Positions 8,205 through 29,526 of a stretch of 64,000 nucleotides of DNA are shown here, piece after piece. Position 1 is the stretch's first letter, and every line of letters begins with the position of its first letter. The notes beneath the pieces are model-generated. The model saw nothing but the letters and a program-made list of their open reading frames with translations. It did not search any database and had not been told where the DNA came from. Position numbers and translations under genes: made by a program. This stretch comes from Shigella phage SSP1. The stretch lies in sequence record KY963424; one strand, written 5' to 3'.

Positions 8205-8228
8205 CATAATGAAGAGTAAGTAGTTTTA

Positions 8229-8260: not shown

Positions 8261-8322
8261 ATCTAAAATTCTTCTTGACAACGACAAAATTTTATGCTCC
8301 AAATAAGATCTTTAAAAACACA

Positions 8323-8351
8323 TTGTAATTTTCCTCCAAAATTAGTATAAT
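8323..8351 (+). promoter_or_regulatory. sigma70 promoter (TTGTAA-N17-TATAAT)
   Basis: -35 8323-8328, -10 8346-8351; RBS GAGGAGG 8363-8369. Confidence 0.6.
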
Positions 8352-8375
8352 GGTACTGGTTAGAGGAGGTTACAA

Positions 8376-9032
8376 TTGGAAAAGTTCTTACAATTATTAA
8401 CGGTACTGCTCCAAGAAGCGAAAGATCCAGCATCGCTTCTTAAACGTCTGCTAACTATCTTAGTTGCTGTCATTATTTTCTTATTTGTTAGTAATACTAG
8501 TGAGGTGATGTCATTCTTAAAGACTTTCTCCACGTCTGCGGTTCTACAGGATGTTCAAACTCAAAGGATAAGTAATTTTCCTAACGTAGCTAGAGAAAAG
8601 AGCATGGTGCTTTTTTCCCAAACGGGTGCGGATGCTGTTTTTGTCGTAAAGTATAAACCCGATGCCGTTAATGATTATTCTAACATTATTGCATGGGAAA
8701 GCAATGCGCAATTAGATAGGACTGACTTGGCCGATAAAGCGGTAAATAAAACGTCTGAGCTATATAGACGACACTTAGACGGCTTTAACTACGCATCGGA
8801 CTTAAGTGTAAAAGTAAATAAATACATGGGGTTAAATATACCTGCGTTTAAGAATGTTACTTTTAATTACATATACACTTGTCCGTATTTCAATCTAAAC
8901 AATATCTATGCTGGATATATTGGTATTGCTTGGAAAGATAATCCTGTAGATGCAGCCGATTCTGAGAAATTTAACGAGTACTTAACAAAGCTCTGTTCCC
9001 CACAACAGAGATCTTTAGGTAGATCAATATGA
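8376..9032 (+). CDS. hol: holin (T5-type)
   Basis: 218 aa, N-terminal TM LLKRLLTILVAVIIFLFV, immediately upstream of and coupled to endolysin; TTG start. Confidence 0.7.
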   Translation: MEKFLQLLTVLLQEAKDPASLLKRLLTILVAVIIFLFVSNTSEVMSFLKTFSTSAVLQDVQTQRISNFPNVAREKSMVLFSQTGADAVFVVKYKPDAVNDYSNIIAWESNAQLDRTDLADKAVNKTSELYRRHLDGFNYASDLSVKVNKYMGLNIPAFKNVTFNYIYTCPYFNLNNIYAGYIGIAWKDNPVDAADSEKFNEYLTKLCSPQQRSLGRSI

Positions 9033-9442
9033 GTTTTAAATTTAGTCAAAGAAGTTTAGATAGATTAAAAGGTGTTCATCCAGACTTAGTAAGAGTAACT
9101 CATAGGGCTTTAGAATTAAGCCCGTATGATTTTACGATTACAGAAGGACTTCGTTCTCTAGAGCAAAGTGCTAAGAATATTGCTAATGGAACCTCGTTTT
9201 TAAAAGACCCAAGCAAATCCAAGCATGTTCAAGGTAGGGCGGTAGATTTTGCTCCACTTAAGGATGGAAAGATTGACTGGAATGACCTAGAATCCTTCAA
9301 GTTAGTGGCAGATGCCTTCTTCAAAGCAGCCGAAGAGCTAGGAGTAAAGATTAGATGGGGTGGTGATTGGAACCAAAATGGAAGTTATAAGGATGAAATC
9401 CAACGAGGTACTTTTGACGGACCACACATAGAACTAGTTTAA
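9029..9442 (+). CDS. lys: endolysin, L-alanyl-D-glutamate peptidase (M15 family)
   Basis: 137 aa; ALELSPYDFTITEGLRS..NIANGTSFLKDPSKSKH..DF..DWND matches recalled T5 endolysin. Confidence 0.85.
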   Translation: MSFKFSQRSLDRLKGVHPDLVRVTHRALELSPYDFTITEGLRSLEQSAKNIANGTSFLKDPSKSKHVQGRAVDFAPLKDGKIDWNDLESFKLVADAFFKAAEELGVKIRWGGDWNQNGSYKDEIQRGTFDGPHIELV

Positions 9443-9453
9443 TTAATAACTGA

Positions 9454-9477
9454 GGCGGGAATATTCCCGCCTTTTTA
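9454..9477 (+). terminator. intrinsic terminator
   Basis: Perfect palindrome GGCGGGAAT/ATTCCCGCC followed by TTTTT. Confidence 0.8.
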
Positions 9478-9519
9478 GGCAAAGGGGGCTTTAATAATTT
9501 TTGAAGATAGGAGAAAGCC

Positions 9520-9936
9520 ATGTTTGCAGAACTATTCCTTATGATGCTGCTGGGTATCTGGAAAATAAGTCTAGTAGTATTCGTTTTAATGATAGTCTTT
9601 ACTATCCTTGCATTAACTACCCGAAATAGCTTATTAATAAAGGTTATTCACGGACTAGAGTATATAATTATGGGTTCATTCGGCGTTTGTAAATGCAATT
9701 GCCATAGAGATACGAAATATTGTTGGTTATGGATGGAACTAGAGAATCCTATATCCATAGCTTTGGCTGTTTCATTCGGCATGATTCTTATGGCCCTTAT
9801 TCTAGCATTAATACCTTTGATGTTAGCTGGGGGAGTTACAGCGTATTTCACCCTTTTCTCCCCGATACTTATGTACTCAATTTACCCAATAACTATGTAT
9901 CTAGTTAGGAGAAGATTTATACATGCAGTAGATTAA
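9520..9936 (+). CDS. hypothetical polytopic membrane protein
   Basis: Several hydrophobic segments across 138 aa. Confidence 0.5.
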   Translation: MFAELFLMMLLGIWKISLVVFVLMIVFTILALTTRNSLLIKVIHGLEYIIMGSFGVCKCNCHRDTKYCWLWMELENPISIALAVSFGMILMALILALIPLMLAGGVTAYFTLFSPILMYSIYPITMYLVRRRFIHAVD

Positions 9937-9949
9937 GATAAAAAAGTAG

Positions 9950-9978
9950 TTGACTTTTAGCCCTAGTTATTGTATAAT
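9950..9978 (+). promoter_or_regulatory. T5 early-type promoter (TTGACT-N17-TATAAT)
   Basis: -35 9950-9955, -10 9973-9978, leader ACATAAATTAGTTAAGAGAGG. Confidence 0.75.
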
Positions 9979-10011
9979 ATATACATAAATTAGTTAAGAG
10001 AGGTATATATT

Positions 10012-10443
10012 ATGTCTGATCGTTTCTATACTCAAATGGCGGAACATTTTCGTATACCACATTACGAGCTAAACATTGCACTCCGTGACCATGACTCTCC
10101 TGAGTACAAAAAGCTCGAAAAGAAAGCGGAAAAATCTATTGATACAAAGGTAGGTGCATCTATGTCTAAGGGCAAAAAGTTAACTCGTCTTGATCTTAAT
10201 AAAATTTTAACTGAACTTTTGGGTACTGATATTGAAGGTGCTAAATTACCGCTTCTTGTACTAGAGACTATGATTAAAAAGGTCAAAAATAAAGAATATA
10301 AGAAGGTAGAAGTCCCAGAAGGCAGATTAAAGGCTCCTTATCAGGAAGCATTAACCGAGTGTTTGGGTGTAAATCTTGATCTGAGCACCGCAACAGTAAA
10401 AACCATGAAAAACTTCTTAGAGGCCATTAATAACTATGAGTAA
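10012..10443 (+). CDS. hypothetical protein
   Basis: ORF downstream of consensus promoter. Confidence 0.55.
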   Translation: MSDRFYTQMAEHFRIPHYELNIALRDHDSPEYKKLEKKAEKSIDTKVGASMSKGKKLTRLDLNKILTELLGTDIEGAKLPLLVLETMIKKVKNKEYKKVEVPEGRLKAPYQEALTECLGVNLDLSTATVKTMKNFLEAINNYE

Positions 10444-10726
10444 ATTAGTATATCTATTGAAAGGTTCCACGTGTCGTCCTTGTGCTCTTTTCGAGCCAGT
10501 ATTTGATAAAGTAGTCAGTGACTATAATTTGGAAGTCCACAAAGAGACTGATAATACAGAATTAATGCAGAAATTTGGTGTGCGCCAAGTTCCTGTAGTA
10601 GTTCTGGCAGATCGCTTACCTAATGGTCGAGTAGAAGCTAATCATATTTTGATTGGACGTCAGCTTCGTAAAGAAACTATGCACGAAGCTATTAAAAATT
10701 TCCTGGATGATAATCCAGAGGACTAA
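10436..10726 (+). CDS. thioredoxin/glutaredoxin-like protein
   Basis: CxxC active-site-like CRPC near N-terminus and VPVVV beta-strand typical of thioredoxin fold. Confidence 0.55.
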   Translation: MSKLVYLLKGSTCRPCALFEPVFDKVVSDYNLEVHKETDNTELMQKFGVRQVPVVVLADRLPNGRVEANHILIGRQLRKETMHEAIKNFLDDNPED

Positions 10727-11452: not shown

Positions 11453-12306
11453 TTATGAAAAAAGAATTTAACCTGCATGAAATGTTAGTAGTACCAGACG
11501 ATGCTAATCTGTTCTTCGTAGGAGATATTCACGGCTGTAATGATATGCTGGAAGATGCTCTTAAACTAGCAGGATATAAAGAAAAGCGTGACTATGTTGT
11601 CTGTGTTGGTGACTTAATTGACCGAGGCACACAAAACCTACAAGTCTTAGCCAAATTCCTATATAATCCACGTTTTATCAGTGTACGTGGTAATCATGAT
11701 CAATTTATGATTGTGGGAGATTGGGCTAATTGGATGTATAATGGTGGTATGTGGGCCATGAATGAACTAGATGCAGACACCATTAAAAATATTGCCGAAG
11801 ATATGGCTGAAAAAATGCCTCTACTTATGACTGTGCTACATAGAGGGAAAAAATATGGTGTAGCACATGCCGCAGTACCAATTGAATACAAAGAATGTGG
11901 CAATGAAGTAAAAATCCCTAATTGGGACAATCTAGTAGTACAACTAGAACATGCCACAGGTCATGAGTTAGGGGATCTTATGGATGCCTACCTATGGGAT
12001 CGTGATGTTATTCAAGATGTATTTTCCCATATGTCTGAGGATGCAAATCACCCATACTTTAAAAAGTATGCAGGGATGCCGGAAGAACTAATAAACGTAG
12101 TGCCAGAAGTTAAAGGGGTAGATTTCGTGTTTCACGGACATACTGGAGTTCCTTACCCACTTCTTTATAAGAACCGTGTTTATCTTGATACTGGCGGTGT
12201 TTTCAACGGGCAGTTGACGGTTGCGCAAGTTAACGATGAAACTGGCAAAATCACCACATTTACCACAGACAAAAATGATAGCTGCGGTGTACAGAGGATT
12301 CTTTAA
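11443..12306 (+). CDS. Ser/Thr protein phosphatase (metallophosphatase)
   Basis: Motifs GDIHGC, GDLIDRG, GNHD characteristic of PPP-family phosphatases. Confidence 0.8.
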   Translation: MGIIMKKEFNLHEMLVVPDDANLFFVGDIHGCNDMLEDALKLAGYKEKRDYVVCVGDLIDRGTQNLQVLAKFLYNPRFISVRGNHDQFMIVGDWANWMYNGGMWAMNELDADTIKNIAEDMAEKMPLLMTVLHRGKKYGVAHAAVPIEYKECGNEVKIPNWDNLVVQLEHATGHELGDLMDAYLWDRDVIQDVFSHMSEDANHPYFKKYAGMPEELINVVPEVKGVDFVFHGHTGVPYPLLYKNRVYLDTGGVFNGQLTVAQVNDETGKITTFTTDKNDSCGVQRIL

Positions 12307-17037: not shown

Positions 17038-17222
17038 TGGAAACATTACTTCTTGTATTACTAGGAGGCTCACTCCTAATAATCCTGGGGCTGATACTGA
17101 TTTGCAGTCGCCTCAATACTAAGAATCTAGAGTTAACCTGTGAGAATGAAATTCTCAATAATGAACTCTTTCAATATAACATCGCAGCTCATAAACTGTT
17201 AGACAAACTGGAGGATATATAA
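17037..17222 (+). CDS. hypothetical small membrane protein
   Basis: N-terminal TM segment LLLVLLGGSLLIILGLILI. Confidence 0.45.
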   Translation: METLLLVLLGGSLLIILGLILICSRLNTKNLELTCENEILNNELFQYNIAAHKLLDKLEDI

Positions 17223-17836
17223 TGTTTACACAACAACCTATTCAAGTAGTACCGGATCATGAACTGAACACATGGGATTATAGCTTTAAAGATTTAACTG
17301 CTACTGTACAATTTAAATCTATGAAGCTAACATTTGCACATACGGATCTTAAAGCCTGTAAAGATCTTGAAGGTAAGCTCGAAGATGCTCGTAAGATTTT
17401 TGGCAAGGCTCGCATCCCAGCTGATAATCTAATTAACGCATTAATCGATGCAGGGTACAAACTTGTGAAGACTGAGGTGAACCGCCCTAGTACTCCAGTG
17501 ACTATTAGAGATCCGTGGCCGTCAGGGACAATCTCAATGCTGAATAACTCCGATAAAAGATTAATGTCGGATATGCACAATGTTCCTTGTGGGGGTGTGG
17601 TAAGTAGTACGCAGTCATATAAGTTTGGGGAAGATTACGGCCCTTCTGTACAGCTGAAACATACTCAAGAAGCTTTTGAATCTGATATGCGAAGCGTAGC
17701 ACCTGCGGATGCTGGAGTTTCTAGGAGTTCTGTTTATGCTATTCATTTTAATAATCCTAGTAAACATGGAAGTTTAGAGGATGCTATTATGGAGGCGTTG
17801 GGAGCCGCTATTAATGAAGATAAGAGAGGTAATTAA
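17222..17836 (+). CDS. hypothetical protein
   Basis: 204-aa ORF coupled to neighbours. Confidence 0.5.
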   Translation: MFTQQPIQVVPDHELNTWDYSFKDLTATVQFKSMKLTFAHTDLKACKDLEGKLEDARKIFGKARIPADNLINALIDAGYKLVKTEVNRPSTPVTIRDPWPSGTISMLNNSDKRLMSDMHNVPCGGVVSSTQSYKFGEDYGPSVQLKHTQEAFESDMRSVAPADAGVSRSSVYAIHFNNPSKHGSLEDAIMEALGAAINEDKRGN

Positions 17837-18177
17837 TGATATTTGGTAAAACAAAAATAGCCCCTGCTGGGGAAAATTTAATTACTCTTAGCCTTTACTA
17901 TAAAGACGAGGATTCTGAGGTAGAGACATTAGAATACGTGGTGGTAGTAAACAGTAAGGCTAAAGAGACAGAATTATTTAATACATTAATAGAGATATCA
18001 AACTGTGAATCTCTACCCCCATTGACCCCTAGAAATGTTGCCCATATGGTTAACCAGCTAGGAATGCTGTGGTATAAATTAGAACCTAGTAAAAGTAATA
18101 CTACAGGAACTTTTAAACCACGAAGAGAGAAAAAGACACAAGTTAGTGATACTAGTCAGCAGGCATGGGATATATGA
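17836..18177 (+). CDS. hypothetical protein
   Basis: ORF in coupled array. Confidence 0.45.
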   Translation: MIFGKTKIAPAGENLITLSLYYKDEDSEVETLEYVVVVNSKAKETELFNTLIEISNCESLPPLTPRNVAHMVNQLGMLWYKLEPSKSNTTGTFKPRREKKTQVSDTSQQAWDI

Positions 18178-18920
18178 TTGAAGAAGCTAATAAATTTAAG
18201 AATATACTCGCTTTAGCAGTAACAGCAGATCACAAATGTCTATCAGAGCTAGAGCCAGATGTCAAACATGCAGTAATGTTTGTTTGTGAGATGTTCCCTG
18301 CTAAATGGGAGGGCAAGAAGATTAAGTTTGATATTAATGCTCCTCAAGCAGATCTAGCGTATTCATACGTGGATATGAACAAAGTATTGAAGTCTTTAGA
18401 TCCAACTGCTAAAGGGCATAGAGCTAACTTTTTACATGTTATTATAGATGAACCTTTGCCAACATATCCAGAAGCAAACGTTCGTCAGGCACTAGAGGCC
18501 TATCCTGAACAACTTCTTATTCCGCCTAAGAAATGTAAGTATGACCATCTTCCCCCTCTAAAATATATGGAGAGTGTTTCTTTCGAGGATATTAATAAAA
18601 CAATTGGAGCTATGATAGCACGGATTGCAGTATCTCATACCCGTAAGATTCCATTAACGGATATTGAAGATAACATTCTTTATGCTATTCATGATGAAGA
18701 GAATACCTTTAGACGTCTTGCGGATGTTCTAGGATTAGGATCATTAACTGCGGCTGTGCTTAACTATGCTCCTAAAACAAATAAATACCCTAGAGGTACG
18801 TTAACCTATGAGGAATCTGGATCAGAATCTTCGTTTCTAGCAACATATATTTACCTAGCATCTAAAGGGGTATATCTCAAAGCCAAGAAGAATCCAAAAA
18901 CGTTAGCAAAATCTTCTTGA
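18165..18920 (+). CDS. hypothetical protein
   Basis: 251-aa ORF; last + strand early gene before the repeat region. Confidence 0.5.
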   Translation: MGYMIEEANKFKNILALAVTADHKCLSELEPDVKHAVMFVCEMFPAKWEGKKIKFDINAPQADLAYSYVDMNKVLKSLDPTAKGHRANFLHVIIDEPLPTYPEANVRQALEAYPEQLLIPPKKCKYDHLPPLKYMESVSFEDINKTIGAMIARIAVSHTRKIPLTDIEDNILYAIHDEENTFRRLADVLGLGSLTAAVLNYAPKTNKYPRGTLTYEESGSESSFLATYIYLASKGVYLKAKKNPKTLAKSS

Positions 18921-19261
18921 CGTTATTAAAAATGTATGTTATAATAATCTCATAGATTAACAATAACTCTTATTGTGAACTCTAGGGGCGATGATTATTA
19001 CAACTCTATTTGCGTCTGTGCTATAGCGGCTAGTCTTAGCGCGGGCCAATATTAGAGTTCTTCCGTAATACTCACGCGCCCCACGAGGAATCTCACATGA
19101 AATGGGGGATCATTTACTTTTAAAACATACGAATATATTTAAAGGCAATATTTGTATTCAAGATGATACACTTGTTGCCGCTCTCCATCTCTAGGATCAC
19201 ATACACTTTCCTAGAAACTCCAGAGTTCTCACGAGATATCACACTTCTAGTGGGCGGTTCT

Positions 19262-19333
19262 CCTAAGTTTCTAGGAACATATACTAGGCGGTTAATACAG
19301 GGCGGTTATGGGGAGGGCGGTTATTTCTAGACA
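19262..19333 (+). repeat. four direct copies of GGCGGTT(A/C)
   Basis: GGCGGTT at 19263, 19297, 19311, 19326. Confidence 0.7.
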
Positions 19334-19366
19334 ACATTTTTTGAAAACACATTTTCAGAAATTATT

Positions 19367-19972
19367 GTCGGATTTGCACACTGACATAAGTTTAAAAACT
19401 GGTCGGATTTGCACAATTGCCTAAGTTTTTAGGAACATATAATCTCCTGAAAATGCCAGCATTATTTCGGGCCGAAGGCCCATGGTTGCCTGAGTTTTTA
19501 GAGCCACAGAAATTTTCACTTGTCAAGCTATTTTGCCCCATTTAGCAAATAAAATTTTACTTTATCTCCACTAATCTCAAATTAACCCAAATCTTCTCAA
19601 CTCTTCCCCAAAATCCCCACAAATCAGGTGCTCCGCACCAAACATGCGCCCCTCTAGCTTCCCCCCCCCCCCTAATTTTCTCTCGCTCTCTCAACTTCTC
19701 CCCAAACCCACACAATCACACACCCTCTCATCGAAGTCACAAAAATATTCCTGAAACCATAAATCTGTCTCCTAGTAAACTCGTGTCGGATTTGCACATA
19801 CCCCACAGGATTCGAACGCAGTTCGAGATTGCTGGAGTTTTTGGGAAAATTCATTGTCGGATTTGCACACTATAAAAATTTTTCGGGTCGGATTTGCACA
19901 CTACCAAAAATTGTCGGATTCGCACATACACGCCCGCACGTAACACCCGTGGAGCAATGTCGGTTTTGCACA
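19367..19972 (+). repeat. dispersed array of seven copies of 14-mer GTCGGATTTGCACA
   Basis: Exact copies at 19367, 19402, 19785, 19856, 19887; one-mismatch copies at 19913 and 19959; same orientation. Confidence 0.85.
19661..19672 (+). repeat. C12 homopolymer within a G-depleted C/A/T-rich tract
   Basis: Twelve consecutive C; surrounding 19560-19780 has about 6 percent G on + strand. Confidence 0.85.
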
Positions 19973-20002
19973 AAAGCGCAGGGCAATTGCCCTGCGCTAA
20001 AT

Positions 20003-20160
20003 ACGAATGATAATAAGAATCATTCTCATTTAAAAAGCGGAATGAGAATGATAATAATTCGCATTTAGAAAGTGAAATGAGAATCAATCTCATTTAAAAA
20101 GTGGAATGATTCTCATTTAGATAGTGGAATGCAAATGATAATGATTCGCATTTAAGAACG
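20003..20160 (+). repeat. tandem array of degenerate AT-rich palindromic repeats (AATGAGAAT...ATTCTCATT / TGATAAT cores)
   Basis: About five tandem units each ending CATTTA(R)AAAG; extra copy at 20491-20512; resembles Fur-box-like GATAAT arrays. Confidence 0.6.
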
Positions 20161-20161
20161 G

Positions 20162-20295
20162 AAGTGAGAAACACTGTTATTTAAGTTATCCACAGACTTA
20201 TCAACAGCACGATTTGACTTGACAAAACCCTAGCCATTTTGAAGCGTTATTAACAGACTTATCCACAGCTTATCCTACTGTATAAATATACAGTA
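20162..20295 (+). repeat. left arm of about 135-bp imperfect inverted repeat carrying DnaA boxes
   Basis: Reverse complement of 23553-23686 aligns with few mismatches; TTATCCACA at 20186-20194 and 20259-20267, TTATCAACA at 20198-20206. Confidence 0.8.
20276..20295. promoter_or_regulatory. LexA (SOS) box-like palindrome TACTGTATAAATATACAGTA
   Basis: 19 of 20 matches to E. coli LexA consensus TACTGTATATATATACAGTA. Confidence 0.55.
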
Positions 20296-20550
20296 TTCCT
20301 ACGCAGTGAATAATTCTAATATAGCGTTAAAACGCTCTCAAACGCATTCTAACGCGTTTAATTTTGGTGGGGATACTAAATCAAGGGCAAAATTGAAGGA
20401 GGCTTGAAAATTAGTTAGCGCGCTAACGATCACACAAGGCGACACGTAACACCCGAATCATTAGCAGGCTAACCATCGCGGGCGCGGTCAAATGAGAATG
20501 ATTATCATTTGAAAATTGGGGCACTTCCAGATAGTTGCGCCCCGTGATTA

Positions 20551-20745
20551 TTAGTCTGGTAGTCGATGCGTGATCTTTTCCTCCTCCCCATATGAGTCCA
20601 CCAAATACTTATAATAACCATCGTGATCATAAATCACTTTATCATATTCGCCACGCTCAACCGCTTGTCGGTTTTCCGGCGTATCGGGCACGTAAAAAAC
20701 ATCAACCATTGTACTAGTTTTGGTTACAACAATTTTATTGCTCAT
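20551..20745 (-). CDS. hypothetical protein (cassette gene 8)
   Basis: 64-aa ORF, GC-richer composition, last gene of minus-strand cassette. Confidence 0.45.
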   Translation of the reverse strand: MSNKIVVTKTSTMVDVFYVPDTPENRQAVERGEYDKVIYDHDGYYKYLVDSYGEEEKITHRLPD

Positions 20746-20855
20746 AATAACTCCCTAGTAAATATATTTTTGCCAATAGTGGCGAACGTTATCGCCCCCA
20801 GCGGAATCATTAGCGGCCTTACTATTACCAACGAAAGTATATAATCTCATTAGTA

Positions 20856-21017
20856 TTATTTTCCTTGCATTAATTTATATATAACGAACATTCCGCAAAA
20901 CTGCCCTAATATAGTGCAGACAACAAGGGATAACACAATATTGCCGATTGTGTTATAAATAACCATACCAACAATAAGGGATAACGCATATCCTAGCAAA
21001 GCAATATAAACAGCCAT
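20856..21017 (-). CDS. small two-TM membrane protein (cassette)
   Basis: ATG one nt after upstream stop; hydrophobic MAVYIALLGYALSLIVGMVIY and LSLVVCTILGQFCGMFVIY. Confidence 0.45.
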   Translation of the reverse strand: MAVYIALLGYALSLIVGMVIYNTIGNIVLSLVVCTILGQFCGMFVIYKLMQGK

Positions 21018-21018
21018 A

Positions 21019-21363
21019 TTATTTACCCATTTTTCGAAACGCTGTTTCAATACTATCAGCCGTGGATTGAATATATGCTCCTTTCATTATCAGGCGCTCG
21101 GTGCACACCTTACGGAAAATATTAATAAAATCATCCTCATTTTCTGCAATTAATGCTTCACCCATAACCTGAACGTCGCAAGCTGCAAAGGTTAAAAATT
21201 GAAACGCTAGTTCACGGGCAACGACCGCATTGATTTTATAATGCGCCTTACCCTCATAAATATTAATAACGCCCTTATATGCTGGCGAAAGCTGGTTTAA
21301 ATAGCTTGCTAATAATGCCGGGCGGCAGTTAGCAACAAAACGATTTCCCTCATAAATAACCAT
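21019..21363 (-). CDS. hypothetical protein (cassette)
   Basis: 114-aa ORF with GGGAGG RBS supplied by upstream small ORF. Confidence 0.55.
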   Translation of the reverse strand: MVIYEGNRFVANCRPALLASYLNQLSPAYKGVINIYEGKAHYKINAVVARELAFQFLTFAACDVQVMGEALIAENEDDFINIFRKVCTERLIMKGAYIQSTADSIETAFRKMGK

Positions 21364-21364
21364 T

Positions 21365-21490
21365 TTATAACCTCCCGATCAGATAGCCCGATAATAACAT
21401 AAAGATCCCCAGCGAAAGAGGATCATTCTTAAATAAGGTGGCGATAAAACCGCCAGCCATTGCAAGGGCAATAACAATAACGCTTTTCAT
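21365..21490 (-). CDS. small hydrophobic peptide (41 aa, cassette)
   Basis: ATGA overlap with upstream stop; sequence MKSVIVIALAMAGGFIATLF...; below track cutoff. Confidence 0.4.
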   Translation of the reverse strand: MKSVIVIALAMAGGFIATLFKNDPLSLGIFMLLSGYLIGRL

Positions 21491-21699
21491 AGTACCCCAC
21501 GAAACGCAGCGTAAAAGGTGGCAAAGTGCCTAACCGTTTCAAGGATCACGTTGCCGCGCTTGTCGAATTTCTTTTCAGTAACACGAAAAGCGTTTTTGTT
21601 ACGTGCTACATATTCGATTTTACAATCTGGACGCTCGAATGTGTTAGCATCCACCAGCTTAAAACCTTTCGAACGTGCAAGAGAAACGTTACGAATCAT
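21487..21699 (-). CDS. hypothetical protein (cassette)
   Basis: 70-aa ORF translationally coupled to neighbours. Confidence 0.5.
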   Translation of the reverse strand: MIRNVSLARSKGFKLVDANTFERPDCKIEYVARNKNAFRVTEKKFDKRGNVILETVRHFATFYAAFRGVL

Positions 21700-21701
21700 T
21701 T

Positions 21702-21881
21702 TTATTCTCCTTTACTATTCATGCAGCCCAGCAGATAAGAAAATGCAGCGATACCCGCGCCAATAATAACCATTGGTTTTGTGACTACTAAACCGCAATA
21801 ATCTTGAATGCCGTAAGCGGTGGCGAAAAGGGTCAAAATAGCGCCCAAGATACCCGCCAGAATAGCTCGAAAAATAACCAT
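21702..21881 (-). CDS. small two-TM membrane peptide (59 aa, cassette)
   Basis: GGGGAG RBS; MVIFRAILAGILGAILTLFATAYG...MVIIGAGIAAFSYLLG; below track cutoff. Confidence 0.45.
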   Translation of the reverse strand: MVIFRAILAGILGAILTLFATAYGIQDYCGLVVTKPMVIIGAGIAAFSYLLGCMNSKGE

Positions 21882-21931
21882 TTTTTAATACTCCCCTAGT
21901 TAGTGGGGCGAAAGTAACGCCCCGTTATTAA

Positions 21932-22162
21932 TTACATTAAGATAATTTTTGCAGCTTGTTTTTTGGTGCAATGTTCCGCCTTCAGGGTATCCAGCAAAAA
22001 GCCCGCTGTTTGTTGATCGATTTGATCATTATCATAAAGCGTCTGGATGGTGTTATAAGTTTTAGCAATGCCGTATTCTTGGACCATTTCTTGAATAATC
22101 CAGCGATTTGATACCCAGCCTTTACCAGTGAAAAGAGCGTCAGAAGAAGAAAAAGCAACCAT
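21932..22162 (-). CDS. hypothetical protein (cassette)
   Basis: 76-aa ORF on cassette strand. Confidence 0.5.
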   Translation of the reverse strand: MVAFSSSDALFTGKGWVSNRWIIQEMVQEYGIAKTYNTIQTLYDNDQIDQQTAGFLLDTLKAEHCTKKQAAKIILM

Positions 22163-22277
22163 TTTAAGCCTCCAAATTTTTGGGAAAATTTTCGACCGTC
22201 CTCAAACGGTGTAAAGGCATTATAACAAAAAAGGCCACCATAAAAGGCGACCTTTACAAAACTTTACAATAGGCTAG

Positions 22278-23267
22278 TTATTGCTCGTTTTCGGTGTTAT
22301 TGGTAAAAGTAGAAATATCGATACCTTTTACCATTTCATCGATCATCTCAGCGATGTTAAAACTTTGGACCATTTCCAACATTGCCGCTTCCATAGCCGC
22401 CCCCGCTACCGCTTTCGCTTTCTGGTTACTCGGGGCGTACTGGTCAACCGCTACACTCAGCAGGTTAGCGATCACTACACGACCAACCGGCGTATCAATA
22501 TAGCCTTTGATCATGAACGGTGCTTTTTTAGCCGCTACTTTCGTGATTTGAGTTAGTGCAATTTTACCCGCTTCCAGTTTTGCAGCGTTTACAACGGCAG
22601 ACTTATTGGCGGCAACGATGTTAGCAATCTTGGTCATAGTGTTTTTTCCTTTATTTTCAGTAGTTTGAGTGTGAACGCTTTTAGTGTTAGAATTTACAGC
22701 ATGTTTTTCTATATTGCCAATACTTTCTTCCCTTTCGAAAGAAAATCCGGCGTCAACAATATCGCCGTCATATACCCGATTATATAACTCCGACGGTAGC
22801 AAAAAATTACCGTTATCATCAAAGGCCATTATAGCCGCAAAACGATACCCATCAGAATCCGACCGATTCCAGCCAACTGATAAATAACGCCAAAATGAAT
22901 CAAGAAAATTTTCTACGTCATAAAGATCATTATCATTGGCCTCATAGTTTTCTATTGAAAAAACTTCTAAGCCCGCCCCAGTATCATAGGCTTTTACTGT
23001 GTTGCCTTTTACGATTATGAAATCAGTATCCGGCCCCCGACTAGTGAGTAATTGATAATCCTGATTATACAAAACAAGCGTTGCCCCTTGCTTATATAAC
23101 GGTAGAAAACTATTCATATTATAAGCATCATAAGCATCAAAAAAGTTTTGATGAATAGTTTCAATATTGAAAACAAAATGTTTAATGCTGGTGGTCCTGC
23201 TACCATCCAGCAGGTTACGCAGCGCACCTTTTAAGACGGTTGCGTTATCTGGTTTATATAGCCTCAT
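22278..23267 (-). CDS. hypothetical 329-aa protein (first and largest cassette gene)
   Basis: Long ORF with RBS GAGGAGG; N-terminal Asp/Tyr-rich domain and Ala/Lys-rich helical C-terminal half; no motif I recognise. Confidence 0.6.
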   Translation of the reverse strand: MRLYKPDNATVLKGALRNLLDGSRTTSIKHFVFNIETIHQNFFDAYDAYNMNSFLPLYKQGATLVLYNQDYQLLTSRGPDTDFIIVKGNTVKAYDTGAGLEVFSIENYEANDNDLYDVENFLDSFWRYLSVGWNRSDSDGYRFAAIMAFDDNGNFLLPSELYNRVYDGDIVDAGFSFEREESIGNIEKHAVNSNTKSVHTQTTENKGKNTMTKIANIVAANKSAVVNAAKLEAGKIALTQITKVAAKKAPFMIKGYIDTPVGRVVIANLLSVAVDQYAPSNQKAKAVAGAAMEAAMLEMVQSFNIAEMIDEMVKGIDISTFTNNTENEQ

Positions 23268-23552
23268 TTGTTGGCCTCCTCGTTAATCGGTGAGTGAATG
23301 ATAAGGGTAATTTTCTAGTATAGGCAAAGATTATTTTACTTTTTTATTTTCCTTGCCTAGTGCCTAATTTTATGCTAACCGCGCAGCGGTGTAATAAAGA
23401 GCAAAACACGGCGAAGCCACCAGGGCGCCGCATTGCCGCCACCTGGCCAACGTGTTGGGCCTTTACTTTAATATTACCCCGCAGCGTTTAGCTCGTTAGA
23501 AAGCGTTTTAGGCGGCCTAAAATTGATTGCAGTCGTTAACACTGCCTTTCTA

Positions 23553-23572
23553 CCCTGTATATTTATACAGTA
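23553..23572. promoter_or_regulatory. LexA box-like palindrome (CTGTATATTTATACAG core)
   Basis: CTGT-N8-ACAG with AT spacer, 17 of 20 to LexA consensus; inverted copy of the site at 20276-20295. Confidence 0.5.
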
Positions 23573-23686
23573 GGATAACCTGTGGATAACTCTGTGTAAA
23601 AGTCCCCATATCGCCGCCTATTGTGTCAAATTATTTTGTGCTGTGGATAACGTTGTGGATAACTTAAATGATAGTGGTTCTCACTT
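23553..23686 (+). repeat. right arm of inverted repeat carrying DnaA boxes
   Basis: TGTGGATAA at 23581-23589, 23642-23650, 23654-23662; reverse complement matches 20162-20295. Confidence 0.8.
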
Positions 23687-23696
23687 ATGCCGATAG

Positions 23697-23765
23697 TTTC
23701 TTATAGTTATTATTATAATGGTGATGATTACATATAGCTATTATTATAGTGGTGATGATTTCATA
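23697..23765 (+). repeat. AT-rich direct repeats (two copies of about 31 bp)
   Basis: AGTTATTATTATAATGGTGATGATTACATAT and AGCTATTATTATAGTGGTGATGATTTCATAT in tandem inside a 350-bp AT-rich non-coding stretch. Confidence 0.75.
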
Positions 23766-24045
23766 TAGTTATTATTTCTCATTAATTTATAAGTATATTA
23801 TATATCATGAAATAGTTAGTTGGCTAATGAGATTTTCCGTGATTAATAGTCTGCTAATAGTTCAGGCCGTTACAATCCACCAGCATGATTATCATCCTAG
23901 CAATTATTAGTCTGCTATCTTTCCGATGCATACTAACAAATAAAAGTCAATTAATTAATTTTATAAAATAAGTCATTTGATCTTGATTTTTAAAAGTCAA
24001 GACCTTTTCCAACTATTTTTCAATTTTGCGTTTGTTAATGATTTG

Positions 24046-24285
24046 TTAAGTCGAAAATAGGCGGCCTAAAACGCCCCAGAACGCAATAAAGTTTTTAGCC
24101 ATCCCATCATAAGGGGATATGCCGTTTATCGCTGCCACGAGGTTTTTGGATTTTGTCAAGTAGGGCAGGGCAAATATAAATGAAAAAATTACTTGCCTAT
24201 TTGCTTTGTTTTGTGGTATTCGCGCGCCCGTTTCTTTTAATTTTGGGCCGTCGCCGGACGTGGTGCGGAAAACTGTATTAGCCAT
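24046..24285 (-). CDS. hypothetical protein (doubtful)
   Basis: 79-aa minus-strand ORF without clear RBS or promoter. Confidence 0.25.
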   Translation of the reverse strand: MANTVFRTTSGDGPKLKETGARIPQNKANRQVIFSFIFALPYLTKSKNLVAAINGISPYDGMAKNFIAFWGVLGRLFST

Positions 24286-24286
24286 A

Positions 24287-24314
24287 TTGCTAATAATTTT
24301 GATATAATATAATA
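24287..24314 (+). promoter_or_regulatory. sigma70 promoter (TTGCTA-N16-TATAAT)
   Basis: -35 24287-24292, -10 24309-24314, upstream of HNH gene with AGGAG RBS. Confidence 0.5.
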
Positions 24315-24342
24315 ACCAAATGAAACTAATAGGAGAATACTA

Positions 24343-24684
24343 ATGATTGAACTAACAAAAGATATTGATTTAGAAACCGTACTAGATAACCTTTACTATG
24401 ATGAAACTAGTCCTAGTTGCCTACGGTGGAAAGTATCCCGCCCCGGTTGCGCCCTTCATGGGGTAGCAGGTACTAAACGGAAGGATGGCTATTGGTCTGT
24501 TCAACTAAATAAAGAGCGTTATCTTGCGCATCGTATTGTGTGGTTACTATTTAATTATAAAATAGATAGCAAACTAGTAATTGATCATATTGATCGTAAT
24601 CCTAGTAACAATTTTATTGATAACTTACGGTTAGTAACTCAAGCCGAAAACAACCAAAATAAAGGAGAGTATAGAAAGGCGTAA
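24343..24684 (+). CDS. HNH homing endonuclease
   Basis: LAHRIVWLLF...IDHIDRNPSNNFIDNLRLVTQAENN HNH_3 motif; AT-rich relative to neighbours. Confidence 0.75.
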   Translation: MIELTKDIDLETVLDNLYYDETSPSCLRWKVSRPGCALHGVAGTKRKDGYWSVQLNKERYLAHRIVWLLFNYKIDSKLVIDHIDRNPSNNFIDNLRLVTQAENNQNKGEYRKA

Positions 24685-24804
24685 AATTTACATTTCTTTA
24701 CAAATATAAGGTTGCGCCTTTTTCGTTATTTGTTATTATTTATCTCGTAGGGCGGCAATGACGAACTACACGGCGGGAAGTTTACCGCCGCGCTCTTTAA
24801 AAAT

Positions 24805-24828
24805 TGGGTATATCTTAAAGCCTATCGG
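24805..24828 (+). repeat. left copy of 24-bp inverted repeat TGGGTATATCTTAAAGCCTA(T/C)CGG
   Basis: Reverse complement of 25075-25098 with one mismatch. Confidence 0.8.
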
Positions 24829-24862
24829 CGGTAAACTTATTACATTATAAGGAATCGACGAT

Positions 24863-25066
24863 ATGAAACAAACTTTATTGATCACTGGTAAACCTAGCAA
24901 GGCACTGGATAGCAAAACAAAAAATTTATTGACAGTAGCGCAAAGATCGGTAAAATATCGATTTGAGCAGTACAAGAAAGGCCGCCAGCAAGGTTTAGAA
25001 ATGATCTGGCGAAATATTATGATCGACCTGAAGGAAAATCATAAAAAACTGCAAAAAATAGTTTGA
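24863..25066 (+). CDS. hypothetical basic 67-aa protein flanked by inverted repeats
   Basis: ORF with AAGGAA RBS lying between the two 24-bp repeat copies. Confidence 0.45.
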   Translation: MKQTLLITGKPSKALDSKTKNLLTVAQRSVKYRFEQYKKGRQQGLEMIWRNIMIDLKENHKKLQKIV

Positions 25067-25074
25067 CAACATAG

Positions 25075-25098
25075 CCGGTAGGCTTTAAGATATACCCA
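25075..25098 (-). repeat. right copy of 24-bp inverted repeat
   Basis: CCGGTAGGCTTTAAGATATACCCA is reverse complement of left copy. Confidence 0.8.
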
Positions 25099-25296
25099 GT
25101 TCGATAAGAGCGATAACTTGATACAATTTGACGGTCGGTACTTACCATAATGTGCCCCGCCCCCTAACTGGGATATAGCGGCCCGCGTGGAGTTCCTTAA
25201 ATTGATTTTATAATGGCGAGCGGATTTTTTCTTATTACCTGTTATTTTCCAGCAGGTAATGCGGAACAATCCCCTAAATAACTTGGAGTTTATACC

Positions 25297-25548
25297 ATGA
25301 AAAACGTTATTACCGCGCCTAAAATTGGTCAATCTGTTTTCATCCCTTTCGTTACTAAAACGGATGAATTAACCGGAAAAGCCGAACGTATTAAAGGCGC
25401 GGCGCTCATGCCGTTCGATACAATCGATGCGGTATACGCTGAAACAGAACGCAGTAACAACGGCAAGCCGATTTATAACGTTCGCGTTAAATCTGGCGAC
25501 GTTGTAAAGGTTGTTCAACGCAACGAAAAATGGGAAGCCGTTTTATAA
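25297..25548 (+). CDS. hypothetical pre-early protein
   Basis: ORF preceded by conserved leader CCCCTAAATAACTTGGAGTTTATACC. Confidence 0.55.
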   Translation: MKNVITAPKIGQSVFIPFVTKTDELTGKAERIKGAALMPFDTIDAVYAETERSNNGKPIYNVRVKSGDVVKVVQRNEKWEAVL

Positions 25549-25562
25549 TTTAGTGTTAACTT

Positions 25563-25590
25563 TATATGCCCCAGTAGTTCGGGGCATATA
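25563..25590 (+). other. GC-cored hairpin without U-tract (pre-early intergenic punctuation)
   Basis: 10-bp stem TATATGCCCC/GGGGCATATA with 8-nt loop. Confidence 0.6.
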
Positions 25591-25646
25591 ACGATTAACA
25601 TTATGTTAATCTTATCCCTTAAATTAAATTAATTGGAGTTTATATC

Positions 25647-26054
25647 ATGACTAACGTTAAAGCCGCAAAATTCACCTGGAACGAAGAAAACACCCAAAAA
25701 GCTGTTACCATGTATCAGCAGTTAATCAATGAAAACGGATTAGAATTCGCAAACAGCGACGGCCTGAAAGAGATTGCGAAAGCAGTGGGCGCGACTTCTC
25801 CCGTGTCAGTTCGTTCGAAATTGACCAGCGCGAAAGCCTATCAAAAAAGCGATAAGCCTCGCAAGGTTGGCGGCGGTAGCTCAATCCGCAAGGCTCATTA
25901 TGTGCGAGTAATTGCAAGACACGCCATCGATTCCGGCATTATCAAAGACGCCGATGATCTGGCAAGCCTTGAAAGCGCGAAGCTGGAAACGCTGGACGCC
26001 GTGGCGCAGTTGTTAGGCGTTGCCGATGAGGTGAAACAAGCCGCAGGCGAATAA
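25647..26054 (+). CDS. hypothetical pre-early protein
   Basis: ORF preceded by leader CCTTAAATTAAATTAATTGGAGTTTATATC. Confidence 0.55.
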   Translation: MTNVKAAKFTWNEENTQKAVTMYQQLINENGLEFANSDGLKEIAKAVGATSPVSVRSKLTSAKAYQKSDKPRKVGGGSSIRKAHYVRVIARHAIDSGIIKDADDLASLESAKLETLDAVAQLLGVADEVKQAAGE

Positions 26055-26062
26055 ATTTAATT

Positions 26063-26088
26063 AGTGGGGATTATTCCCCACTATTTTC
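26063..26088 (+). terminator. hairpin / possible terminator
   Basis: Stem AGTGGGGA/TCCCCACT loop TTAT followed by ATTTTCC. Confidence 0.5.
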
Positions 26089-26109
26089 CCCTTGATTGGA
26101 GTTTTTAAA

Positions 26110-26307
26110 ATGATCTTTTACCCCACTGAATCGCTCATTCTAGGCTTATTTATTATGGCGGCCTCGTTATTGTTCGCATATTTTCAAAATGATTTAGATT
26201 CGTATTATTTTAAACGCAAATCTAAGTTAGCGAAGCGTTTGGGCCTGATTTGTTTTATTGCCGCCGTTGCTTGTGGTGTTAGTTCTAGCCTGATGCCGAT
26301 TAGTTAA
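26110..26307 (+). CDS. small two-TM membrane protein (pre-early)
   Basis: ATG after TTGGAGTTTTTAAA leader; hydrophobic LILGLFIMAASLLFAYF and LGLICFIAAVACGV. Confidence 0.5.
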   Translation: MIFYPTESLILGLFIMAASLLFAYFQNDLDSYYFKRKSKLAKRLGLICFIAAVACGVSSSLMPIS

Positions 26308-26319
26308 ATATTGCAAATT

Positions 26320-26345
26320 ATAACGCCTATTATTGGAGGCGTTAT
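26320..26345 (+). other. intergenic hairpin
   Basis: Stem ATAACGCCT/AGGCGTTAT. Confidence 0.55.
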
Positions 26346-26347
26346 AT

Positions 26348-26364
26348 TTGGCAATATTTGCCAA
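26348..26364. promoter_or_regulatory. 17-bp palindrome TTGGCAA-TAT-TTGCCAA (operator-like)
   Basis: Perfect 7-bp half-sites, located about 40 bp upstream of A1 start. Confidence 0.4.
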
Positions 26365-26404
26365 TAACAAACGTTTTTTAATCCCTTTAATGGAGTTTAT
26401 TATT

Positions 26405-28075
26405 ATGATTATTTCCGCAGAAAAACAAACCGTTATCCTGAAGCTGGCCGCTGACTTTAATTTCTATGGTAAACGTCTGCGCGCCACTAAATTGGAAGTA
26501 TGTGACGATATTTCGAAAGCGGTATACGATACACCGAAACACTCTACCGCGATTTGTGATTGGCTGGAAGCAAATAAACCAGCGAAACCGAAAACGGCAA
26601 AAGTAGCAAAAGCTATTAAAAACGACGAGCGCCCCGAGGCGGCTGGAATTATTTCTAGCACGGTGGAACAGTGGGAAGTAAAGCAGGGCAAACGCTTTAT
26701 TATTACATCGATTCAGAATAATACTTTCCCGCATAAAAACTTTTTGGCCTCACTGGAACAATACGCTAAATTTATCGGCGCTGATTTACTTGTTTCTAAG
26801 TATATTTATAACAAAAACGGCTTTCAAAATGGTGAAGGCGCGGACGGTGTAAAATATGATTCCGCGTTTGATAAGTATATTTGCAGCAAAAACGTGTTTT
26901 TAAATAACCGCCGTTTTGCTTTCATGGCTGAAATTAATGTTCTGCCCACTGCAGACTATCCGCTGTCTGGATTCGCAGAAACTGCAACGGCTCTCAATCT
27001 TGAAGGTCTGGCAATTGGTCACGCTAAAATCACCGCCGAAAGCGTGCCAGCTCTCAAAGGTGAAGTAGTACGCCGCATGTACTCAACCGGAACGGCAACA
27101 CTCAAAAACTACATTCAGCAGAAAGCAGGACAGAAAGCGGAAGCACTGCATAATTTCGGTGCGCTGATTGTTGAGTTCGACGAAGACGGTGAGTTTTTTG
27201 TGCGCCAGCTTGAAACGATGGACGAAAGCGGCATGTTTTACGATTTGAATATTTGCGCGACCCCCGCCGGATGTTATGAAACATCGGGGCATGTTTTAGG
27301 TTTACAATATGGCGACATACACGCCGAAAAACTTGATGAGGAGTGCGCCGCAGCGTCATGGGGTCATGGTGATACTTATGGGCTAGTGGATATTCTTAAA
27401 CCTAAATATCAGTTTGTGCATGACGTTCACGATTTTACATCACGCAACCATCACAACCGCGCTTCAGGTGTATTTCTAGCGAAACAGTATGCAGCCGGAC
27501 GTGACAAGGTTCTGGATGATCTCATCGACACCGGGCGCGTGCTGGAATCAATGGAACGTGATTTTAGTCAAACGATCATTGTCGAATCTAATCACGATCT
27601 GGCGCTATCCCGTTGGCTTGATGATCGCAATGCTAACATTAAAGACGATCCAGCCAACGCGGAACTGTATCACCGCCTTAATGCTGCGATTTACGCGGCA
27701 ATCGGTAATCATGACGATACTTTCAACGTGCTGGATTATGCGCTGCGTACGGTTGCAGGTTGCGAGTTTAACGCGATTTTCCTGACAACTGACCAATCGT
27801 TTAAAATCGCAGGCATTGAATGCGGCGTACACGGTCACAACGGCATTAACGGGAGCCGTGGCAATCCGAAGCAATTCAAGAAATTGGGCAAGTTAAACAC
27901 GGGGCACACCCACACCGCCAGCATTTACGGCGGCGTTTATACCGCTGGCGTCGCTGGTTCCCTCGATATGGGCTATAACGTTGGCGCGTCAAGCTGGACG
28001 CAAACGCATTTAATTACCTATGCAAACGGCCAGCGCACTTTGATTGACTTTAAAAACGGCAAATTTTTCGCATAA
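26405..28075 (+). CDS. A1: A1 pre-early protein (metallophosphatase-fold, host DNA degradation/takeover)
   Basis: 556 aa from ATG 26405 as recalled for T5 A1; phosphoesterase motifs GDIHAE and GHGD; conserved pre-early leader. Confidence 0.75.
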   Translation: MIISAEKQTVILKLAADFNFYGKRLRATKLEVCDDISKAVYDTPKHSTAICDWLEANKPAKPKTAKVAKAIKNDERPEAAGIISSTVEQWEVKQGKRFIITSIQNNTFPHKNFLASLEQYAKFIGADLLVSKYIYNKNGFQNGEGADGVKYDSAFDKYICSKNVFLNNRRFAFMAEINVLPTADYPLSGFAETATALNLEGLAIGHAKITAESVPALKGEVVRRMYSTGTATLKNYIQQKAGQKAEALHNFGALIVEFDEDGEFFVRQLETMDESGMFYDLNICATPAGCYETSGHVLGLQYGDIHAEKLDEECAAASWGHGDTYGLVDILKPKYQFVHDVHDFTSRNHHNRASGVFLAKQYAAGRDKVLDDLIDTGRVLESMERDFSQTIIVESNHDLALSRWLDDRNANIKDDPANAELYHRLNAAIYAAIGNHDDTFNVLDYALRTVAGCEFNAIFLTTDQSFKIAGIECGVHGHNGINGSRGNPKQFKKLGKLNTGHTHTASIYGGVYTAGVAGSLDMGYNVGASSWTQTHLITYANGQRTLIDFKNGKFFA

Positions 28076-28082
28076 TTAAATT

Positions 28083-28110
28083 TATAAGCGGGGTATATAC
28101 CCCGCTTATA
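28083..28110 (+). other. GC-cored hairpin without U-tract
   Basis: Stem TATAAGCGGGG/CCCCGCTTATA around TATATA loop. Confidence 0.6.
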
Positions 28111-28142
28111 TCCCTTATTAAATTAATTGGAGTTTTATAACT

Positions 28143-28535
28143 ATGAAAAAGCAAAATATCCCATTCGATCGCGCTCAATCTTCCATCGTTCTGGTTTATT
28201 CTAATGGTGAGCGGTATCACGTTGAGGCCGGTCACGTTGTTGATGATTTAATCGACTTTAATGACGCTTTACAGATTACTACTTTCGCCTATACGCAAGG
28301 CCGCGCAAGTAGTCACATCAAGGCCGCAGGCGTTTATGTTGATACGGTGAAGCAGGAAACGATTATCATCGACGCCGTAAAATCCGGTCTAGCCTTTGCA
28401 GTTGTCGCGCCTTGTCCAGCTTGCTTTGATGATCAGCTATCGAGCGCAAAGGTATATATCTGCGCGGGTGTTCGTTCTCATGTATCCGGCGAAGATATTA
28501 GTTTCATCGCTGATGCGTTGGCTTATGGTCTTTGA
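28143..28535 (+). CDS. A2: A2-like pre-early protein (assignment by position and size)
   Basis: 130-aa ORF between A1 and dmp with conserved leader TTAAATTAATTGGAGTTTTATAACT. Confidence 0.45.
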   Translation: MKKQNIPFDRAQSSIVLVYSNGERYHVEAGHVVDDLIDFNDALQITTFAYTQGRASSHIKAAGVYVDTVKQETIIIDAVKSGLAFAVVAPCPACFDDQLSSAKVYICAGVRSHVSGEDISFIADALAYGL

Positions 28536-28548
28536 TAGTTGATTTATT

Positions 28549-28575
28549 ATTGCCCGCTGATAAATAGCGGGCAAT
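28549..28575 (+). other. GC-cored hairpin without U-tract
   Basis: 10-bp stem ATTGCCCGCT/AGCGGGCAAT, loop GATAAAT. Confidence 0.6.
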
Positions 28576-28615
28576 GCTGGATAAACTAAATCCCTTTAAT
28601 GGAGAACGTAACAAA

Positions 28616-29350
28616 ATGAATCAAGTTAAAATGAATATTACCCGTAATTTCCCGCATATTTCCCGCGTCATGATTTGGGATCTGGACGGAACAATCATTA
28701 ATTCATTCCATCGTGTCGCGCCTTGCTTTGATAGCGAGGGTAATTTAGATTTAAATAAGTATAAGAATGAAGCGTGTAAGCATCATTTAATAATGCAAGA
28801 TACCTTATTGCCTTTGGTTGAATATATGCGCCAGTGCATGAATGACGCAAATACTTTAAACATTATTTGTACCGCTCGACTAATGAGCAAATCGGACTAT
28901 TATTATTTGCGCAAACAAGGCTTACGCGGTCGTGGGGATAGTAATATCCGCGTGTTTTCCCGCGATACGCTGCATAAATATTTTGAAGCTGATAAAGTTA
29001 GCGAAATATACCACAGTAAGGACGCAGTTTATAAATCGTATTATTTTGAGCTATTCAAACAACTATATCCGAACGCTGATTTTACAATGATTGATGATCA
29101 TAAAGGTGTATTATCAGCGGCAGCGTCATACGGATTTAAAACGCTGGACGCGCAAGCCGTTAATGATATTCTATCAATCGGCGTGGCATTGATAGGCGGA
29201 ACCTTTATTGATGAATCTCTCGATGATGATAATGATTATCAGTTCCTAGCGGACCGCTTAAAACTATGTTGGGAAAGCATGACCGAAGAAGAACGCGCAG
29301 AATATAGTTGCAGCCCGCAACAATATATTGAGAAATTAAAAGTTGCGTAA
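28616..29350 (+). CDS. dmp: 5-prime-deoxyribonucleotidase (HAD family)
   Basis: 244 aa from ATG 28616 as recalled for T5 Dmp; HAD motif I WDLDGTI. Confidence 0.75.
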   Translation: MNQVKMNITRNFPHISRVMIWDLDGTIINSFHRVAPCFDSEGNLDLNKYKNEACKHHLIMQDTLLPLVEYMRQCMNDANTLNIICTARLMSKSDYYYLRKQGLRGRGDSNIRVFSRDTLHKYFEADKVSEIYHSKDAVYKSYYFELFKQLYPNADFTMIDDHKGVLSAAASYGFKTLDAQAVNDILSIGVALIGGTFIDESLDDDNDYQFLADRLKLCWESMTEEERAEYSCSPQQYIEKLKVA

Positions 29351-29526
29351 TAATTAAAATTGAAATAGTTTCATCCTGTAATTAAAAATGGTTGCAGGGT
29401 GAAACAGTTAGCAGGGTAATAGTCACGGGGGTGGCGGTTAGCAGACTAAGTATTTTCGCCCTAGCCACTGGACTCACCCACGCGTACGTAATCCAAAGAA
29501 TTTGGCAAAAGTCATTTTAGCGCTAA

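Follow-up and report, generated by a model that had tools for sequence, protein, structure and literature searches.

The seven same-strand copies of a 14-mer at positions 19367-19972 are almost certainly the direct repeats named DRD that belong to the untranslated Repeat Region 3, or injection stop signal (iss), of the Demerecviridae, and they form two clusters that flank the boundary of the terminal repeat, a layout that is found across the phage family. The window, by which we mean the whole 64,000-nucleotide stretch of Shigella phage SSP1 that was analysed (record KY963424), carries this region at the junction of the ~10-kb terminal repeat with the early genes, as other T5-like phages do. 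The DRD repeats are already known as a named element of a model phage, and their presence here will not surprise a T5 specialist; the additions that we make are modest, namely the family-wide two-cluster layout, which is new here, and new evidence, from comparison of the sites, that argues against DnaA as the binding protein. Together these sharpen the question of partner and function into simple binding experiments. Long-standing problems in T5 are the stop and restart of DNA injection and the exact cutting of genome ends that bear a 10-kb repeat; the target of A2 and the terminase site belong to these problems, and DRD is an obvious probe for binding assays because it is short, family-wide, strictly oriented, and located where both processes occur.

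A pattern scan of the window recovered the five exact and two one-mismatch copies of GTCGGATTTGCACA that had been described, all on the + strand. The exact copies are at 19367-19380, 19402-19415, 19785-19798, 19856-19869, and 19887-19900, and the one-mismatch copies are GTCGGATTCGCACA (19913-19926), a variant that recurs in relatives, and GTCGGTTTTGCACA (19959-19972). The conserved repeat unit is 15 bp, extending one base beyond the 14-mer (TGTCGGATTTGCACA). With up to two mismatches allowed, there are 11 matches to GTCGGATTTGCACA in the 64-kb window compared with 0.18 expected, and none of 100 shuffles of the window gives 11 matches, in agreement with the preliminary description that the repetition is far beyond chance. 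Its report of irregular spacing within noncoding DNA also holds: the start-to-start distances are 35, 383, 71, 31, 26, and 46 bp, and we regard the array as noncoding because it contains only short overlapping open reading frames (42-80 aa) and because relatives differ from the window here by 2-, 5-, and 10-bp indels, which are not multiples of three. The homologous stretch of T5 has no annotated gene. Helical phasing of the copies was ruled out, as the distances are not multiples of ~10.5 bp. Two copies that relatives keep are missing from the window; one is a third outer copy that has decayed to ACGAGATATCACAC (19231-19244, +) and that alignment shows as an intact ATCGGATTTGCACA in T5, SPC35, and SIA3lw, and the other is an inner copy that has been replaced near 19735-19770.

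The window is from a T5-like phage (Tequintavirus), is reverse-complemented with respect to T5, and is nearest to Salmonella phage SPC35. For the 1.7 kb around the array, matches of 76-99% identity occur in hundreds of T5-like phages (Demerecviridae), with SPC35 (98.7% over 19330-20000, and 99.7% for the A1 protein) and Th1 as the best matches. To the untranslated junction region of many of these phages, the array region can be aligned at 87-99%. In the T5 record (NC_005859), iss is annotated as untranslated at 9140-10149, the left terminal repeat at 1-10219, and the 7.9% major nick at 9748/9749; the homologous region thus lies where the left terminal repeat ends on the right, inside the repeat and just beyond it. 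Comparison with T5, which the preliminary description had proposed as a check, revealed exactly the same 14-mer at the homologous place, in nine copies (with no more than one mismatch) over 9752-10490 on the corresponding strand, with one more in gene T5.019; the copy at 19367 is homologous to T5 10340-10353. The array shares with the T5 repeats its junction position, an identical 14-mer on the same strand relative to the neighboring genes, a location between the 7.9% nick palindrome and the DRA-like repeats (GGGCGGTTA), and collinearity of the named elements, which are the DnaA-box pairs (IRD'/IRC'), the DRE-type repeats, the 7.9% nick, and the end of the terminal repeat. The one difference is in copy number, with nine copies in T5 and seven in the window, one inner copy having been replaced and one outer copy having decayed. 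The DRD repeats and Repeat Region 3 are reportedly also treated in work by Heusterspreute in 1987, by Wang in 2005 (with nine DRD repeats), and by Davison in 2015. Nine DRD repeats are listed for the Repeat Region 3/iss region of T5 in the available text of Davison (2020, bioRxiv 10.1101/866236), which also states that the functions of the repeats there cannot be guessed, and our equation of the 14-mer with DRD follows from the copy number of nine in T5 and from the order of elements listed in that text. The motif string was not found in the literature searched.

The terminal-repeat boundary, TTTTTA/GAGCCACAG, falls at window position 19500/19501, and the terminal repeat lies to its right, at about 19501-29473. 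Seven records fix this boundary at the homologous position, by the annotated repeat ends of T5, MM-1, SPC35, EscoHU1, SIA3lw, and My1, the last of another subfamily, and by the PhageTerm-derived end of Klebsiella phage KpGranit. In these seven phages, the DRD copies are at about -270, -133, and -98, and at +245 to +455, relative to the boundary. The annotated ends of Kenya-K15 and pork29 are off this position by 19 bp and 207 bp, respectively, and both are still inside the gap between the clusters; the annotated repeat end of Kenya-K16 is discordant with those of its relatives. The preliminary description treated the array as a single cluster, and although all of its copies are present, the boundary maps between them, so the array consists of two clusters. 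The outer cluster, on the unique side, contains the copies at 19367 and 19402 plus the decayed copy at 19231, and the inner cluster, within the terminal repeat, contains the five copies at 19785-19972, compared to six in most relatives. Measured from the boundary, the outer cluster is 85-134 bp away on the outside and the inner cluster 284-470 bp away on the inside, and the outer copy that is 85 bp away (19402-19415) is in a column block that is 100% conserved in 11 phages.

The boundary itself is within the most conserved block of the region (19440-19560), together with a GGGCC-GAA-GGCCC hairpin (19469-19481), and this is the only block of DNA that is still alignable to the Klebsiella phages. 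Between the boundary and the inner cluster is a C-rich spacer (19560-19760, +), in which a C12 run (19661-19672) exceeds its counterparts in ten aligned relatives by 5-6 nt; it may be a homopolymer that is hypervariable, or else an artifact of sequencing or assembly. The innermost DRD copy, ending at 19972, abuts a conserved nick site. No DRD copy is near the left terminus, at about 29473 in the window.

The two-cluster layout is present in four lineages: the Markadamsvirinae, the Klebsiella Sugarlandvirus phages (including Boggle), in which the DRD consensus is TGTCGGWWWTGCACAT, Pectobacterium phage My1 (Mccorquodalevirinae), and the Vibrio T5-like phages pVp-1 and GRLPWR (Ermolyevavirinae). 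In the shared order, the outer repeats come first, followed by the boundary block, the inner repeats, the nick consensus, the DRE-type repeats, and the paired DnaA boxes. For GRLPWR, comparison of the two repeat copies in the record places the boundary 8 bp from the homologous point, with DRD-like sites on both sides. In the Vibrio phages, DRD has drifted to T.G.ATTTGCACC while the adjoining DnaA boxes remain canonical (TTATCCACA), and the Proteus T5-like phages have only degenerate DRD remnants. Among 11 close relatives, the seven stable copies show 95-100% per-column conservation compared with about 83% for the other columns; when the two variable copies are included with them, 249 of 5000 random block sets are equally conserved.

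Beyond the array, the motif is rare. The preliminary description had named an equal frequency throughout the genome as the finding that would tell against its interpretation, and this is not what we see, with eight of the 11 matches (up to two mismatches) in the complete Kenya-K17 genome (106,672 bp) falling within the homologous 600 bp. An isolated near-copy with one mismatch (17566-17579, +) is located in the open reading frame homologous to T5.019 (17222-17836) and is exact in T5 (12153-12166), although it is uncertain whether it is a functional site. The SbcC-like D13 gene (ORF 61386-63305, minus strand) contains two adjacent near-copies with one and two mismatches (62030-62058, starting at 62030 and 62045, +), which are situated ~360 bp upstream of the 64.8% nick site. 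All three near-copies are also conserved in T5 and K17, and their orientation is always that of the array. Because the D13 pair specifies a repeated VQ motif belonging to a coiled coil, it may have arisen by coincidence of coding, or it may provide extra binding sites. We also scanned a set of bacterial and archaeal genomes, in which each of 185,579 species is represented once, for closely spaced DRD pairs and found none in the enterobacterial genomes. The seven matches that were obtained are one T5-like contaminant contig, one possible marine T5-like phage, and otherwise unrelated tandem repeats. The first is in a 'Spirochaetia' metagenome-assembled genome (MAG; L017) and is clearly T5-like contamination; the second, a 2.3-kb contig of an 'Alphaproteobacteria' MAG (CAZMBF010000179.1), has tandem 22-bp units of TTTTATAGTCGGATTTGCACCA, which carry the Vibrio-type DRD variant, at 553-600, and is possibly a piece of an unrecognized marine T5-like phage that was assigned to a bacterial MAG during binning.

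The preliminary description argued that the repeats imply a specific binding protein, of either host or phage origin. The conservation, uniform orientation, and retention of DRD across subfamilies fit a sequence-specific binding site, although no DRD-binding protein was found in the literature searched. As to its origin, the comparisons lean towards a phage-encoded protein, because the motif drifts in the Vibrio phages next to DnaA boxes that stay canonical, and because enterobacterial genomes lack such arrays; this is not proof, and a host factor could still be responsible if it changes along with the host. Two phage proteins are candidates. The small terminase (the T5.156 homologue, window 32944-33426) has a homologue throughout the family, with 92-100% identity in the exact-motif subfamily, about 52% in the Klebsiella phages, and 41-45% in the Vibrio phages; for A2, the pre-early DNA-binding protein (25647-26054), the values in the same groups are 81-100%, about 65%, and about 40-44%. 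Because the two proteins diverge in parallel, covariation with the motif does not discriminate between them. Pfam searches of A2, the small terminase, and the flanking open reading frames gave nothing significant; for the small terminase, there was a weak helix-turn-helix hint but no DNA-binding domain at a significant level. We note that an old T5 entry (GenBank M62847) labels the start of the small-terminase gene as 'sciB: putative', a single-chain interruption locus, which hints at a historical tie between this gene (32944-33426) and nick formation.

On balance, we think it probable that DRD is a cis-acting site for one of these two T5 proteins, either a pac site for the small terminase or a site of second-step restart by A1/A2; if this is correct, then a 14-15-bp motif would be tied to a 50-year-old question that is thereby made directly testable. 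Our tentative preference is for DRD as the binding sites of a phage-encoded protein, probably the small terminase, that mark the cut at the right end. According to this proposal, a sequence-specific phage protein, with the small terminase subunit as the leading candidate, would bind the co-oriented 15-mers, loading onto both of the DRD clusters that flank the boundary in replicated concatemeric DNA. The loaded clusters would then position the large terminase so that its cut generates the right end of the genome. We infer that the right end would be packaged first, since the left end is injected first, in which case the DNA entering the capsid would carry the inner cluster, and the outer cluster would stay behind on the other side of the cut, in the manner of SPP1 pacR/pacL or lambda cosB R. 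A packaging array is preferred because the boundary is between the clusters in every lineage examined, an arrangement that would be needed for presentation of a cut site and not for injection. It is also consistent with the boundary block being the best-conserved part of the region, with confinement of the motif to this locus in the whole K17 genome, and with small terminases that are 92-100% identical where the motif is exact and 41-52% identical in the lineages with variant motifs. Against it, the inner cluster begins 245-285 bp from the cut, the position equally fits the end of first-step transfer (about 7.9-8.3% of the genome), the Proteus phages keep only remnants, and the left terminus is without DRD. 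An experimental link between DRD and terminase was not found in the literature searched.

Repeats that bind the small terminase next to a terminase cut are known from the pac site of SPP1 (pacL-pacC-pacR) and, as R sites, from lambda cosB. DRD resembles these in position only, having short repeats on one or both sides of a genome-end site and within a few hundred base pairs of it; by analogy, it would also have a cis-acting and phage-lineage-specific function. DRD differs in that T5 has exact ends with a 10-kb direct repeat, rather than headful or cohesive ends, and in that the copies are more numerous and all co-oriented. DRD is also adjacent to a genome-end cut but is not present at every terminase site; its absence from the left terminus (about 29473) is not fatal, as termination cuts can use other signals. 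A second repeat, GGCGGTTA, occurs six times in the window, compared to 1.0 expected, with copies at 19287-19323 and 29433-29440 that are all on the same (+) strand; three are 178-214 bp outside the right boundary and one is about 35 bp inside the left terminus. In the T5 literature these repeats probably go by the name 'DRA', and it may be GGCGGTTA, and not DRD, that is the terminase signal common to both genome ends.

The main alternative, only somewhat less likely, is that DRD controls the two-step transfer of DNA into the cell, either with A2 (together with A1) binding to restart the second step, or with a pre-existing virion or host factor halting entry at about 8%. The array region is the annotated iss, and the estimated shear point of first-step T5 DNA (about 9618) is immediately left of the inner cluster (9752-9974). 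A2 is found only in the same phage family as the array, and its AlphaFold model (pLDDT 84) has a predicted N-terminal four-helix domain that is helix-turn-helix/Myb-like, followed by a basic linker and then by a second helical domain at the C terminus. A 2026 T5 preprint describes A2 as essential and DNA-binding, with its mechanism and target still unknown. In addition, the co-oriented sites at 17566 and 62030/62045 would suit a factor that acts on entering DNA. However, transfer control gives no reason for the boundary to be between the clusters in every lineage. The first-step stop of T5 transfer needs no new protein synthesis, so A2 cannot itself cause it. Moreover, no sequence specificity has been reported for A2, and comparison of its model with the PDB gave no significant match (best E = 0.44).

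It is unlikely that DnaA binds the DRD copies as boxes of low affinity, or that some other conserved host protein binds them, so that they extend the nearby DnaA-box cluster, which in the available text of Davison (2020) is proposed to tether the DNA to membrane-bound DnaA as it enters. In its 3' half, ATTTGCACA, DRD is one position off the DnaA-box consensus TTWTNCACA (as quoted in that text), the innermost copy at 19959 contains TTTTGCACA, an exact fit, and true DnaA boxes are 215-300 bp away, at 20186-20267; the core ATTTGCAC is also kept from Vibrio to Escherichia phages. Nonetheless, the conserved DRD unit is longer, at 15 bp, with TGTCGG outside any DnaA box, and in six of the seven copies the corresponding sequence is ATTTGCACA or ATTCGCACA, one or two mismatches away from the nine-mer TT(A/T)TNCACA. 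In the Vibrio phages, the last base of DRD changes to C (GCACC), giving variants that end in CACC and are off the DnaA-box consensus, whereas the adjacent genuine boxes are still TTATCCACA. Enterobacterial chromosomes do not have arrays of the motif, and the available text of Davison (2020) does not count the DRD copies as DnaA boxes.

An iteron-type replication origin, composed of direct repeats, DnaA boxes, and A/T-rich DNA, is very improbable. As in plasmid and phage iterons, there are several co-oriented direct repeats in noncoding DNA close to paired DnaA boxes, and A/T-rich palindromes are also nearby. Yet the DRD distances are irregular (26-383 bp), there is no adjacent initiator gene, and the flanking open reading frames are without a Rep-like domain. 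Furthermore, earlier electron microscopy cited in the available text of Davison (2020) places the T5 origins near mid-genome, and according to the same text the replication genes are silent during first-step transfer. Least probable of all is that DRD copies are functionless remnants of local duplications kept by recent common ancestry, for although copy number varies, with two copies lost from the window and almost none in the Proteus phages, the motif outlasts alignable flanks in the Klebsiella, Pectobacterium, and Vibrio phages, conservation of the seven stable copies is well above that of the other columns, and orientation and layout are invariant.

Several other elements near the array warrant mention. 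The nick site, AAA/GCGCAGGG, is within the palindrome GCGCAGGGC-AATT-GCCCTGCGC (19973-19997, +) and corresponds to the 7.9% major single-chain interruption of T5, with the consensus Pu pGCGC. DRD does not determine nicking, as it is absent from the vicinity of the major T5 nicks at 18.5% and 32.6%, and a distance of 360 bp separates the D13 pair from its nick. The homologues of major nicks share PuGCGCAGG (window 7039, 19975, and 62419, all +; T5 22336, 9748, and 78573) as well as CGTAA(T/C)NC positioned 38-42 nt upstream, and the nick signal may be bipartite. In Proteus phage Stubb (NC_048086), the PhageTerm-derived repeat end (11415/11416) coincides with the nick consensus CACATAG/GCGCAGGG rather than with the boundary block, which suggests that a nick-derived pile-up of reads was taken for a terminus.

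A scan for promoters and terminators showed no convincing promoter overlapping any DRD copy, and a role for DRD as a transcription operator was rejected, with the sole strong promoter being at 18917-18945. This near-consensus sigma-70 promoter (+ strand; TTGACG, a 17-bp spacer, TATAAT, and an extended -10 TG) is directly after the open reading frame at 18165-18920 and fires into about 400 nt (transcript about 18950-19330) that is without a T5-annotated gene. An equivalent promoter together with a conserved 'GGGGGA..TAT' element is at the same place in T5 and in the Klebsiella, Pectobacterium, Vibrio, and Proteus phages, and the transcript may be a small RNA or encode a tiny open reading frame. 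An Rfam scan of 18700-20700 gave only subthreshold matches (PrrF at 29 bits against a cutoff of 90, and others), and thus no known RNA family at this locus.

Finally, the DRE-type repeats (20003-20150 and 20488-20512), which are located between the nick and the DnaA boxes, resemble Fur boxes. The best Fur-like match, GATAATAAGAATCATTCTC, has three mismatches from GATAATGATAATCATTATC, and several others have four or five; the weak Rfam match to the Fur-regulated PrrF is over the same DNA. Classical T5 enters via the iron-regulated receptor FhuA, and the Fur-like character of the DRE-type repeats is of interest for this reason.
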